The notes below the pieces were generated by a model. The model was not told where the DNA came from. It saw nothing but the letters and a program-made list of their open reading frames with translations, and ran no database searches. A stretch of DNA of 58,214 nt from Gemmatimonadota bacterium (lineage in GTDB: Bacteria; Gemmatimonadota; Gemmatimonadetes; Palauibacterales; KS3-K002), in assembly GCA_039588075.1 (NCBI GenBank), contig JBDHAL010000011.1:1-58214 (forward strand). Direction: 5' to 3'. Numbering within the stretch: the first letter of the stretch is position 1; every line of letters begins with the position of its first letter. The translations under genes and the position numbers were made by a program. This document shows positions 26,940 to 43,167 of the stretch, piece after piece.

Positions 26940-27013
26940 AGCGGGAGACGGGACTCGAACCCGCGACCCTCAGCTTGGAAGGCTGATGCTCTGGCCAACT
27001 GAGCTACTCCCGC
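26940..27013 (-). tRNA. tRNA-Gly (anticodon UCC)
   Basis: The reverse complement reads GCGGGAGTAGCTCAGTTGGCCAGAGCATCAGCCTTCCAAGCTGAGGGTCGCGGGTTCGAGTCCCGTCTCCCGCT. It has a 7-bp acceptor, anticodon loop CUUCCAA, and a GTTCGAGTC T-arm. CCA is not encoded. Confidence 0.9.
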
Positions 27014-27046
27014 TTCTTTGGGCAGGCTTGGCTGCCCGGGCAGGCA

Positions 27047-27144
27047 GGTAACCGGTAATCGGTGACCGGTAACACCTGACCCATCGTCGGCGGCCGGTGG
27101 CCGGTCGGGAAGGTGCCGTTACCGATCACCGGTTACCGCTTACC
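27047..27144. repeat. family-B heptamer arrays in inverted orientation (palindromic spacer element between tRNA-Gly and tRNA-Val)
   Basis: GGTAACCGGTAATCGGTGACCGGTAAC, about 45 nt, then GTTACCGATCACCGGTTACCGCTTACC. Confidence 0.7.
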
Positions 27145-27149
27145 AAACA

Positions 27150-27223
27150 TGGGGCGGGAGGGACTCGAACCCCCGACTTCTGCGATGTGAACGCAGCGCT
27201 CTAACCAACTGAGCTACCGCCCC
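27150..27223 (-). tRNA. tRNA-Val (anticodon CAC)
   Basis: The reverse complement reads GGGGCGGTAGCTCAGTTGGTTAGAGCGCTGCGTTCACATCGCAGAAGTCGGGGGTTCGAGTCCCTCCCGCCCCA. The anticodon loop is UUCACAU. CCA is not encoded. Confidence 0.9.
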
Positions 27224-27278
27224 GCCGGATGTATCGAAACACATCAATTGTCCCGTTTCGATACACCTTCCTGCCGAA

Positions 27279-27351
27279 AGCGGGAGACGGGTCTCGAACC
27301 CGCGACCTCGAGCTTGGGAAGCTCGCGCTCTACCAGCTGAGCTACTCCCGC
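27279..27351 (-). tRNA. tRNA-Gly (anticodon CCC)
   Basis: The reverse complement reads GCGGGAGTAGCTCAGCTGGTAGAGCGCGAGCTTCCCAAGCTCGAGGTCGCGGGTTCGAGACCCGTCTCCCGCT. The anticodon loop is UUCCCAA. Confidence 0.9.
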
Positions 27352-27420
27352 GTTCTTTCAAAGTGCTCCGGCGCCGCCCGCGTGACAAGTGCTTCGACAA
27401 GCGGTCGTGCCGGTTGGAAA

Positions 27421-27490
27421 GGTAACCGGTAATCGGTGATCGGTAATCGGTAACGGCCCGGATCCACCGGTTACCGGTCACCGGTTACCG
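27421..27490. repeat. family-B heptamer hairpin element (core GGCCCGGATCCACC)
   Basis: GGTAACCGGTAATCGGTGATCGGTAATCGGTAAC, then GGCCCGGATCC, then ACCGGTTACCGGTCACCGGTTACCG. Ends 7 nt before the tRNA-Cys 3' end. Confidence 0.75.
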
Positions 27491-27496
27491 AAACAG

Positions 27497-27567
27497 AGGT
27501 GCCGGGAGGAATTGAACCTCCGTAAGAGGCTTTGCAGGCCTCCGCCTAGCCACTCGGCCACGGCACC
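27497..27567 (-). tRNA. tRNA-Cys (anticodon GCA)
   Basis: The reverse complement reads GGTGCCGTGGCCGAGTGGCTAGGCGGAGGCCTGCAAAGCCTCTTACGGAGGTTCAATTCCTCCCGGCACCT. The anticodon loop is CUGCAAA and the discriminator is U. Confidence 0.9.
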
Positions 27568-41700: not shown

Positions 41701-42195
41701 GATCAGAAGAACATCCGCACCGCCGGCGGCCAGTCCCTTCGCCTGCTCGCAGAAAACATCGACCAGCTCGTCGTAGGTGATGTTTCCGAGCGCCGGATCC
41801 GAGGTGCTGGGCAGATAGCCCGACGGGCCGATACTGCCGGCGACGAAACGGGGCCGGTCGGGCGTCGAGAAATCGTCGGCGACGTTTCTGGCGATCTCCG
41901 CCGCCGCCCGGTTGAGCTCGATGATCTTATCGCCGAGTCCGTACTCGGCGAGGCTCAGACGGTTGGCGCGGAAGCTGTCGGTCTCGATGACATCGCAGCC
42001 GACCTCCAGGAAGGAGGCGTGGATATCGTGAATGACTCCGGGGCGCGAAAGGACGAGGTAATCGTTGCAGCCCTCGAGTTCGGGGCCGCCGAAATCATCG
42101 GCCGACAGCTCGAGCGACTGCACACTCGTGCCCATCGCCCCGTCGAAAACGAGGACGCGCTGTTTCAGGACGTCGAGGTAGCGGCTCTCACCCAT
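38728..42195 (-). CDS. metH: cobalamin-dependent methionine synthase
   Basis: 1155 aa. It has the Hcy S-methyltransferase N-terminus (VLVFDGAMGT...GGCCGTTPEH), a pterin-binding domain, a B12-binding domain (TVFGDVHDIGKNLV) and the C-terminal AdoMet-activation domain. Confidence 0.95.
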   Translation of the reverse strand: MGESRYLDVLKQRVLVFDGAMGTSVQSLELSADDFGGPELEGCNDYLVLSRPGVIHDIHASFLEVGCDVIETDSFRANRLSLAEYGLGDKIIELNRAAAEIARNVADDFSTPDRPRFVAGSIGPSGYLPSTSDPALGNITYDELVDVFCEQAKGLAAGGADVLLIETGQDILELKAAITGVRNALREAGAWIPVQVQPTLDTAGRMLLGTNIEAALVTLEALRIDVIGLNCSTGPKHMREPIRYLCDSTRLPVSVVPNAGIPHNVDGVAVYGLTPEALADAHDEFVRKFGVSIVGGCCGTTPEHMERVVERVWGVEPLRREVVSVPRVSSAMEAYDIAQNPAPSLIGERVNSQGSRKVKQLLLDDRYDEILSIARDQVEGGAHLLDVCTALTERQDEAEQTSTLVKLLAQGVPTPLVIDSTEVEVVEAALKRNPGRGVINSINLENGRARIDSVVPHAVEHGAAVIALTIDEEGMAKTADRKAEIARRIHDICVNDYGLRSQDLIFDDLTFTLATGDEEFRRSAVETIDGIRRIKQELPGVFTSLGVSNVSFGLQPHARAVLNSVFLHHCVEAGLDMAIVNAAHIVPYAEVDQEQRGLADDLIFDRREDSLERYIAYFQEHEAEEAEQVDPTADMTCEEVIHWMILHRVKEGIEGLVDTAIEERGGDNDAAVWVLNNVLLPAMKEVGDKFGTGELILPFVLQSAEVMKKAVARLESYLDQVEGQTKGVVVLATVFGDVHDIGKNLVGTILSNNGYTVHDLGKQVPVNTIIDKAQEVGADAIGLSALLVSTSKQMPLCVQELYTRELDYPVLVGGAAINPSFVRNAAFVDDSKETVYPPGLFYCKDAFAGLAAVDALRDEDGREDYVRARHREIREGIVKREALQEKARAARAGVGGKGGPSRDVEIPEPAFWGVKVLDRLPLADLFPLIDLNTLYRLHWGAKNAKGAKWEQLQKDEFEPRLERYKQETLAGGWLRPQAAYGFFPATADADALVVYDPADGEREIARFDFPRQADYDKLSLTDYFLPAAGGGRDVVAFQIVTVGDAILEKSDALMKSGDYAEGYYLHGFGVRLAEAGAEYVHSRIREELGVEPERGLRYSWGYGACPDHRQHGIVFELLPARERLGMELTEAGALIPELATAALVVHHPAARYFSV

Positions 42196-42200
42196 GGCCC

Positions 42201-42238
42201 AATAACAAAAGCCCCGGCTACGGTCTTCCGCGCGGGGC
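42201..42238 (-). terminator. terminator-like hairpin plus U-tract in the metH leader (candidate attenuator or riboswitch expression platform)
   Basis: The minus strand reads GCCCCGCGCGGAAGACCGTAGCCGGGGC followed by TTTTGTTATT. The U-tract ends 5 nt before the metH ATG. Confidence 0.4.
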
Positions 42239-42370
42239 GTCGAATCGGCTCGTCAGCGTATTCTGTCCCGGCACTTTAGACCTTTGTTTTGGCGGCACCG
42301 CTCCGGTGCCGCCCGGCGGTGGCAAGCGTCCACAAATCCGTCCGCCGGAATCACATCAATTGTCCCGCTC

Positions 42371-42400
42371 AAGTATCGCGCGTCGCCTGCGGCGGGTCAA
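42371..42400 (-). promoter_or_regulatory. candidate sigma70-type promoter for metH
   Basis: On the minus strand, TTGACC, an 18-nt spacer, then ATACTT. This would give a leader of about 170 nt. Confidence 0.3.
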
Positions 42401-42534
42401 GTGCGCCGGGCAGCGGGTCGCGATCTTGCAGCCGCGGTTGGCGAACAACGGGGCGATATGTATGTTGTGAGGCATCATGAGCGCCCTGGCGGCGCAGCCG
42501 CCCGCGCGCTACCGGATATCCCCCGCCGACACAG

Positions 42535-43167
42535 ATGAACGGGACTGGAGGGTTGATGATGAAGGCCATTATTCGCATGGCGTGCGGCATCCTGGTGTTG
42601 GCAATCGCTCCCGCAGCCTCCTTCGCGCAGGACGGGACGACGCCGTTCCTCATGATCCCCGAGACGCTGGCGCGCGGCCAGTCGGAGATCGGCGGCTACG
42701 TGTCCATCGAAGAGAACATCGACCTGTTCGGGATCTATAGGCGCGGCCTGTCCCCAGGCTTCGATGTCGGCCTGCGGCTCGGCTTCACCGACGCGGCGGG
42801 CGGCGGCGTCAACTTCGGCGGCGACGCGAGGTACATGATCTCCCATGGTTCTCAGGACCTGCCGCTGCAGTTCGCTCTGGTCGGTGACGCCCAGTTTTCC
42901 ATCCTGGACGGCGTGAACCTGTTCGCCGCGCCGGCCGGCGTCTCGATGGGCGCGATGCTGGAGCCCGAGGACCACCCGCTCTGGCTGTACGGCACTCCCT
43001 ACGTGATGTTCACCTGGGTGGATGTCGATGGTGTTGGATCGGATACCGATCTGGACATCGGCATCGAGCTGGGCGCCCAGCTGCTGCTCGGTGGGAAGCT
43101 CTGGCTGGCGACGGCGCTGACGATTCAGAATGATGTGGCGCTTGCGCTGGGGCTTTCATACCGCTGA
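42535..43167 (+). CDS. putative outer-membrane beta-barrel protein (210 aa)
   Basis: Signal peptide (MKAIIRMACGILVLAIAPAASFAQ). Alternating hydrophobic beta-strand pattern, Gly/Asp-rich loops, and a C-terminal strand ALALGLSYR. The start may be 42556 or 42559. Confidence 0.55.
   Translation: MNGTGGLMMKAIIRMACGILVLAIAPAASFAQDGTTPFLMIPETLARGQSEIGGYVSIEENIDLFGIYRRGLSPGFDVGLRLGFTDAAGGGVNFGGDARYMISHGSQDLPLQFALVGDAQFSILDGVNLFAAPAGVSMGAMLEPEDHPLWLYGTPYVMFTWVDVDGVGSDTDLDIGIELGAQLLLGGKLWLATALTIQNDVALALGLSYR

Follow-up and report, generated by a model that had tools for sequence, protein, structure and literature searches.

The SAM-II riboswitch, also called the metA motif (Corbino et al. 2005, PMC1273637), is represented in Rfam by RF00521 (SAM_alpha) and RF01726 ('SAM-II long loop'). 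The residues of SAM-II that contact SAM are U10-U12 in L1, U20, U21 and G22, the bulged U44, and A45-A47 (PMC3303485). SAM-V (RF01826), found with metY of 'Candidatus Pelagibacter ubique', has a triplex ligand pocket as in SAM-II; in SAM-V the 3' strand of P1 leads into a P3 stem-loop, after which come A-minor adenines and the ascending P2 strand, whereas SAM-II has no P3 (PMC6061858). In both classes the linker L3 faces the minor groove of P1. SAM-V and some SAM-II members are translational switches, the 2-bp P2a of SAM-V masking the Shine-Dalgarno sequence (PMC6061858).

Here we analyse the leader of a metH gene on a contig from a bacterium of the phylum Gemmatimonadota; the whole 58,214-nt stretch of DNA that was analysed is referred to as the window. 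Gemmatimonadota is a poorly studied phylum, mostly known from metagenome-assembled genomes (MAGs), and in the literature searched we found no paper on SAM-II in Gemmatimonadetes. Judging by sequence comparison, we consider it very probable that the metH leader is a riboswitch for SAM that belongs to the SAM-II/SAM-V pseudoknot superfamily and serves as an OFF switch of transcription. Its architecture, a SAM-II core and platform combined with a P3 like that of SAM-V, is unrecorded; the class itself is a known one and not new. The coordinates of its parts are given in Table 1.

Table 1. Features of the metH locus and its leader (positions in the window; nucleotide strings read on the minus strand).
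Feature	Position	Strand	Remarks
metH, cobalamin-dependent methionine synthase, 1155 aa	38728-42195	-	five MetH Pfam domains
Candidate sigma-70-type promoter, TTGACC-N17-GATACT	42372-42400	-	-35 at 42400-42395, -10 at 42377-42372
Putative aptamer, SAM-II-type H-type pseudoknot with inserted P3 hairpin	42265-42349	-	R1 match, 100 bits
P1 5' strand, GGCGG	42342-42346	-	partner strand 42315-42319; the same in all 33 P3-bearing members
P1 3' strand, CCGCC	42315-42319	-	
L1 / third strand, ACGGAUUUGU	42332-42341	-	GAUUU invariant
P2a 5' strand, GGAC	42328-42331	-	GG pairs with CC at 42270-42271
P2b 5' strand, CUUGCC	42321-42326	-	U:A, U:A and G:C invariant
P3, inserted 9-bp hairpin, GGCGGCACC-GGAGC-GGUGCCGCC	42291-42313	-	all six scored pairs covary
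A-rich linker L3, AAAACAAA	42283-42290	-	(G/A)AAC(C/A)AA(A) conserved
3' pseudoknot strand, GGUC-U-AAAG-UGCC	42270-42282	-	GUGCC is the P2a 3' strand
Predicted antiterminator, 42267-42282 (GGUCUAAAGUGCCGGG) with 42222-42237 (CCCCGCGCGGAAGACC)	42222-42282	-	minimum free energy (MFE) fold
Predicted intrinsic terminator	stem 42211-42238, U-tract 42201-42210	-	-18 kcal/mol alone

The protein encoded by metH contains the Pfam domains S-methyl_trans, Pterin_bind, B12-binding_2, B12-binding and Met_synt_B12, in line with the gene assignment and minus-strand orientation given in a preliminary description of this DNA. The intergenic gap 5' of metH is 339 nt long and the neighbouring gene (42535-43167, plus strand) is divergent from metH; the metH promoter therefore lies within a divergent intergenic region. 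This promoter is the only sigma-70-like site between 41900 and 42900 (shuffled sequences give 0.2), and its -35 (CTTGACC) and -10 (GATACT) elements are kept in relatives of the same family. The preliminary description had also placed a promoter 5' of metH, and its N18 spacer and ATACTT element are the same site read one base over. The metH transcript probably starts near 42365. The divergent gene has a GGAGG site 5' of its start at 42535 and a signal-peptide-like N-terminus; a minus-strand ORF that overlaps it (42475-42975) matches no Pfam family.

Read on the minus strand, the aptamer core is GGCGG-ACG-GAUUU…CUUGCC-A-CCGCC … AAACAAAG-GUC-U-AAAG-UGCC, which agrees with the consensus of SAM-II at those SAM-contacting positions that were compared; the likeness includes the CUAAAG of the tail. 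The segment 42346-42315 reads GGCGG-ACG-GAUUUGU-GGAC-GCUUGCC-A-CCGCC, so that the P1 loop opens with GAUUU and closes with the UUGC strand of P2b, and P1 could be extended by pairing of C42347 with G42314. The equivalents of U10-U12 are U42336, U42335 and U42334, those of U20, U21 and G22 are U42325, U42324 and G42323, that of U44 is U42278, and those of A45-A47 are A42277, A42276 and A42275; all the mapped SAM-contacting residues (from PMC3303485 and PMC6061858) are present and conserved in the metH leader. In the proposed fold, the P1 loop would supply both the U-rich third strand GAUUU and the P2 5' strand GGAC...CUUGCC; after P1 would come the variable P3 hairpin, the A-rich linker and then GGUC-U-AAAG-UGCC, which would close the pseudoknot.

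The folding energy of the leader is no different from that of shuffled sequences (z = -0.85), so that the argument has to come from comparison between genomes. By blastn against 60 relatives, we found the leader in 13 other genomes from two families, at 74-81% identity over ~190 nt, and in every relative locus that reaches far enough its place is upstream of the conserved metH start. A pattern scan of species-representative genomes yielded matches to the leader in 17 contigs of Gemmatimonadota MAGs. Two further pattern matches, in contigs of Clostridia and Verrucomicrobiota, were set aside as chance matches in coding DNA, without tail or terminator. Among the 17 distinct metH leaders 59 columns are invariant. 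The invariant blocks are GGCGGACGGAUUU, CUUGCCACCGCC and GGUCUAA.GUGCCGGG, the last with one variable base (A in 15 leaders, G in two); between the blocks are two variable hairpins, both of which show compensatory changes among the leaders. As a side observation, the region between terminator and metH start in five relatives is occupied over 60-200 nt by short repeats, both tandem and inverted, with units such as GATGGGG/GATGGCG and GTCGTAGTC; the spacer in the window is without repeats.

To collect further members, we used a covariance model (R1) made from no sequences other than the 17 metH leaders. Of 151 genomes sampled from the phylum, 19 have a match; for the window's family the figure is 25 genomes out of 30, and for the sister family three out of 30. 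The matches fall into hairpin-bearing elements of 77-87 nt and hairpin-less elements of ~61 nt, and many genomes have both. Through R1 we obtained 33 distinct hairpin-bearing members from across the class, which make up alignment A3.

We found that P3 and the pseudoknot covary in this alignment. All six scored pairs of P3 change on both sides across the 33 sequences, and the length of the stem varies widely. The P2b pair two steps past the G:C pair (columns 32-98) is CG in 18 members, UA in 14 and AU in one, and is unpaired in none; in the P3-less set the same pseudoknot pair is GC in eight, AU in seven and GU in two. The covariation score of A3 was reached by none of 500 shuffles, and 89.6% of its cells pair, compared with 35-48% when partners are slid. 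As P1 and P2a are invariant in the P3-bearing set, no covariation comes from them there; P1 does vary in the hairpin-less elements of the phylum (CGUGG/CCACG, CGCGG/CCGCG, GGUGG/CCACC, and also CGAGG with a matching partner). Not every pair is canonical: the second G:C-type pair of P2b is a C.U mismatch, or requires a bulged U, in the window's clade (18 of the 33 members), and the third P2a pair, C:G in 24 of the 33 members, is A.G in the window. The RNAalifold consensus of the 17-sequence alignment was partly implausible because the core is invariant, and only its hint of an antiterminator was used. The preliminary description had named conservation and covariation of related leaders as tests, and both are seen. 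It had also given the perfect 9-bp GC hairpin at 42291-42313 exactly as it stands; this hairpin is no element of a sensor or attenuator but the inserted stem P3, variable in sequence and with all its scored pairs covarying.

We then compared the leader with existing RNA-family models. At the gathering thresholds, a scan of the whole window against Rfam returned four tRNAs only and no riboswitch; the four tRNA genes are clustered at 26940-27567 on the minus strand. With permissive filters and E <= 10, the region 42100-42600 gave no match to RF00174, RF01057, RF00162, RF01826, RF01727 or RF00521. The one informative line was a partial match to RF01726 (positions 6-35, at 42346-42315) of 15.5 bits, where the Rfam 15 gathering cut-offs are 44 bits for RF01726 and 36 bits for RF00521; the other matches were at chance level. 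Standard RNA-family models thus miss the leader on account of its extra hairpin. The same division is seen among loci scanned alongside one another: none of nine P3-bearing loci passed any Rfam cut-off or gave any riboswitch match, whereas eight of 11 P3-less loci passed, seven of them for RF00521 (36-48.4 bits, six at 42.6 or more) and two for RF01726.

The two forms can nevertheless be linked. R1 matches two Rfam-positive elements, L051 (41.4 bits, E = 2.7e-08) and L052 (27.3 bits, E = 7e-05). An HMM of 22 hairpin-less SAM-II or SAM-II-like elements gave two weak half-matches to the intact window (E = 0.67 and 0.79), and, when P3 was deleted in silico, a single match of 20.5 bits (E = 1.5e-05). 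A covariance model of 19 distant P3-less SAM-II elements (R2), run with filters off, found the right locus with 8.7 bits and E = 1.9, threading P3 wrongly as P1, and an nhmmer search with an HMM of the same 19 elements did not match the leader either with or without P3. As the models of distant hairpin-less elements failed, the link between the two forms depends on closer members.

These results bear on several points of the preliminary description. It had counted a cmscan search without a hit, along with a lack of conservation, against a riboswitch; there was indeed no match at threshold, but the missing match does not serve as a refutation, the leader being conserved and homologous to SAM-II. 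Its judgement that the leader is neither S-box nor SAH agrees with the absence of RF00162 and RF01057 at E <= 10, while the loose cobalamin resemblance it mentioned is not borne out by any RF00174 match even at that level. It had left open a known class or an unclassified element; we place the leader with two of the classes it listed, SAM-II (RF00521) and SAM-V (RF01826), and homology to SAM-II, through the R1 links and the HMM match after P3 excision, speaks against an unclassified element.

A second SAM-II-like element, without the hairpin, was observed in the window's own genome (contig C283, 2607-2669, minus strand). It reads GGUGGACUGAUUUGUGGCCGCUUGCAACCACC-AU-AAAAAAAGCCUAAACAGCCGGG and is followed, ~140 nt downstream, by a fusion gene of the homocysteine S-methyltransferase-MTHFR type. 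Its scores of 39.6 bits on RF01726 (cut-off 44) and 26.9 bits on RF00521 (cut-off 36) are just under both cut-offs, and standard annotation would therefore overlook it too. It corresponds base for base to the metH leader, except for the 23-nt hairpin that the latter has between the P1 3' strand and the A-rich segment; where the metH leader has its A-rich segment, P3-less elements read UUAAACAA.

In the window's family, in some genomes of the sister family f2 and in one genome of family f5, copies with the hairpin stand ahead of metH; in one genome such a copy precedes a gene with an aspartate-kinase-like N-terminus. In family f3 the hairpin-bearing copy is followed by a terminator, a small ORF rich in Cys and Met, a second terminator and a gene that is metY-like by its N-terminal sequence. 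The f3 ORFs lie ~130-400 nt downstream of the aptamer and are ~28-35 codons long in most loci; examples of their products are MKRCPEMCRCKCMCTPRGVDC... and ...EMCCRICMCP..., and the metY-like gene starts M[TP]YHPDTLAIHAGQ.... This layout suggests a tandem of a SAM riboswitch and a leader-peptide attenuator that uses Cys/Met codons. The gene context, methionine or SAM metabolism throughout, fits SAM as the effector.

Downstream of the aptamer is a stem of GCCCCG (42238-42233) and CGGGGC (42216-42211), after which comes UUUUGUUAUU (42210-42201). Folded alone, this hairpin is a bulged stem of 11 bp; a simple terminator scan missed it because its loop exceeds 8 nt. Between the U-tract and the metH ATG (42195) are 5 nt, GGGCC, and no Shine-Dalgarno-like purine run is visible ahead of the ATG. 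The preliminary description had reported a terminator-like hairpin at 42201-42238 that ends 5 nt before an ATG with no obvious Shine-Dalgarno sequence and had read the leader as an attenuator or riboswitch expression platform; the reading as a riboswitch-type leader with a terminator platform holds. In relatives, ~15 to ~260 nt separate the terminator from the start, often filled with repeats; a terminator adjoining the ATG is specific to the window's genome and is not conserved. A stable GC-rich hairpin ahead of a U run is present in 31 of the 33 members. The remaining two lack a run of three U and were left out of the antiterminator scoring.

The unconstrained MFE fold of the leader is the antiterminator, which takes up the 3' pseudoknot strand together with the 5' arm of the terminator and encloses a variable hairpin at 42242-42263. 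With these pseudoknot strands blocked as a mimic of ligand binding, the whole leader folds into P1, P3 and the terminator. The base after AAAG in the tail (N52) is paired with the 5' arm of the terminator in all 31 leaders scored, with pair types that differ across clades (U.G in ten, U-A in seven, C-G in nine and A-U in five), a count somewhat biased by selection, since RNAduplex chooses whichever partner is best. For many members the terminator is already part of the MFE fold at full length, and switching must therefore be kinetic.

On this basis, the leader most likely behaves as a SAM-triggered transcriptional OFF switch with termination as its predicted outcome. When SAM is bound, the 3' pseudoknot strand would be held in the P2a/P2b triplex, the GCCCCGCGCGG...CCGGGGC hairpin and the U-tract would form, and transcription would halt ahead of metH. 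Without SAM, the 3' pseudoknot strand would pair with the terminator at its 5' arm and loop (GGUCU/AGACC, GUGC/GCGC and GGG/CCC), and polymerase would read on into metH through the antiterminated leader.

SAH riboswitches control metH in many proteobacteria and activate on binding their ligand, and SAM/SAH aptamers bind SAM and SAH without discrimination. We consider it unlikely that the SAM-II-like pseudoknot described here responds to such other ligands (SAH, or SAM and SAH indiscriminately), even though metH is a classic target of SAH riboswitches and the window's clade carries a C.U one pair away from the predicted adenine-stacking site, together with the A.G in P2a. The uridines that select the sulfonium through their O4 carbonyls (the equivalents of U11 and U21) are invariant, as is the bulged U44, and neither RF01057 nor RF01727 gave a match. 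The predicted wiring, in which the ligand-bound pseudoknot leads to the terminator, would fit repression by SAM, whereas SAH switches activate; moreover, the metY-like, aspartate-kinase-like and MTHFR-fusion targets are of the kinds of genes that SAM represses and not those of SAH recycling. From the conserved equivalents of U11, U21, U44 and A45-A47, we infer selectivity for SAM over SAH. The C.U or bulge beside the adenine pocket might have retuned affinity in the window's clade.

It is also conceivable, with still lower probability, that SAM binding acts mainly on translation, with the terminator-like hairpin blocking ribosomes at the AUG instead of, or besides, terminating transcription. 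The closeness of the U-tract to a start codon that lacks a visible Shine-Dalgarno sequence would suit such a role, and translational control is known for SAM-V and some SAM-II members (PMC6061858). This closeness is, however, not conserved: as the distance from hairpin and U-tract to the start varies in relatives (~15 to 260 nt), a translational role is possible in the window and is not a conserved mechanism. The GC-rich stem precedes a U run in 31 of the 33 members, and in family f3 it is a separate small ORF that comes after the hairpin. Least probable of all, and hardly credible in our view, is a leader that senses no ligand, whether an attenuator that is protein-dependent or constitutive, or a class unrelated to SAM-II. 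The leader exceeds the threshold of no Rfam family and, with its z of -0.85, folds no more stably than shuffled sequences; against this stand the base-for-base correspondence to SAM-II at the mapped residues, the reach of R1 to Rfam-positive SAM-II elements, the significant HMM match after excision of P3 and the covariation of the pseudoknot, with cobalamin, SAH and S-box models all without a match at E <= 10.

A SAM-responsive OFF switch ahead of metH would explain feedback control of methionine synthase in Gemmatimonadota, and involves no new sensing principle. All nine P3-bearing copies scanned fall under the Rfam 15 cut-offs and most of their hairpin-less relatives pass, so that censuses undercount SAM-II-type control in this phylum. 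The 33 sequences of A3 are usable as the seed of a new model.

Among known systems, the SAH (RF01057), SAM-I/S-box (RF00162) and cobalamin (RF00174) riboswitches likewise occupy leaders of methionine-cycle genes, but their architectures differ from that of the metH leader, which none of them matches at E <= 10; for the SAH class the regulatory sign is also opposite to the OFF behaviour predicted here. SAM-V is closer. Its P3 topology is matched by the metH leader at 42313-42291, followed by AAAACAAAG, where P3 covaries. The metH leader differs from SAM-V in being GC-rich, in its longer P1 and P2a, in its terminator platform and in giving no match to RF01826 at E <= 10. Where SAM-V masks a Shine-Dalgarno sequence, the metH leader has none in or after its tail and has a terminator and U-tract instead.

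The closest likeness is to SAM-II, with which the metH leader shares the order of the core (P1, GAUUU, turn, (C/A)UUGC, P1', A-rich linker, GC-U-AAAG, P2a strand), the H-type pseudoknot, the mapped ligand-contacting residues and a class of genes for methionine or SAM synthesis. In the available part of the 2005 report, the 3' strand of P2 in SAM-II is complementary to the 5' arm of a terminator, as it is in the metH leader (PMC1273637). Copies of SAM-II that lack P3 and exceed Rfam cut-offs are found in the same phylum, and the genome itself has one that is near threshold. The differences lie in the linker and tail. SAM-II consists of one stem and a pseudoknot with an unstructured linker, whereas in the metH leader a 23-nt hairpin (42291-42313) interrupts the linker, as a hairpin does in all 33 members; P3 in the hairpin-bearing copies has from a few to well over ten bp (nine in the window) and is placed after the P1 3' strand and before the A-rich linker, and no P3-like stem is present in the available part of the 2005 SAM-II alignment (PMC1273637). 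The SAM-II tail is (U/C)GCUAAAG and that of the window's clade is GGUCUAAAG, which entails the C.U mismatch or bulge in P2b. We suggest tentatively, and with somewhat less than even confidence, that the hairpin-bearing form is a distinct phylum-wide subclass which combines a SAM-II core and terminator with the P3 of SAM-V, and which possibly extends over Gemmatimonadota and Bacteroidota-type lineages. If so, it would merit a covariance model of its own, as current models miss every copy tested, and it would represent a natural intermediate that makes SAM-II and SAM-V one family.
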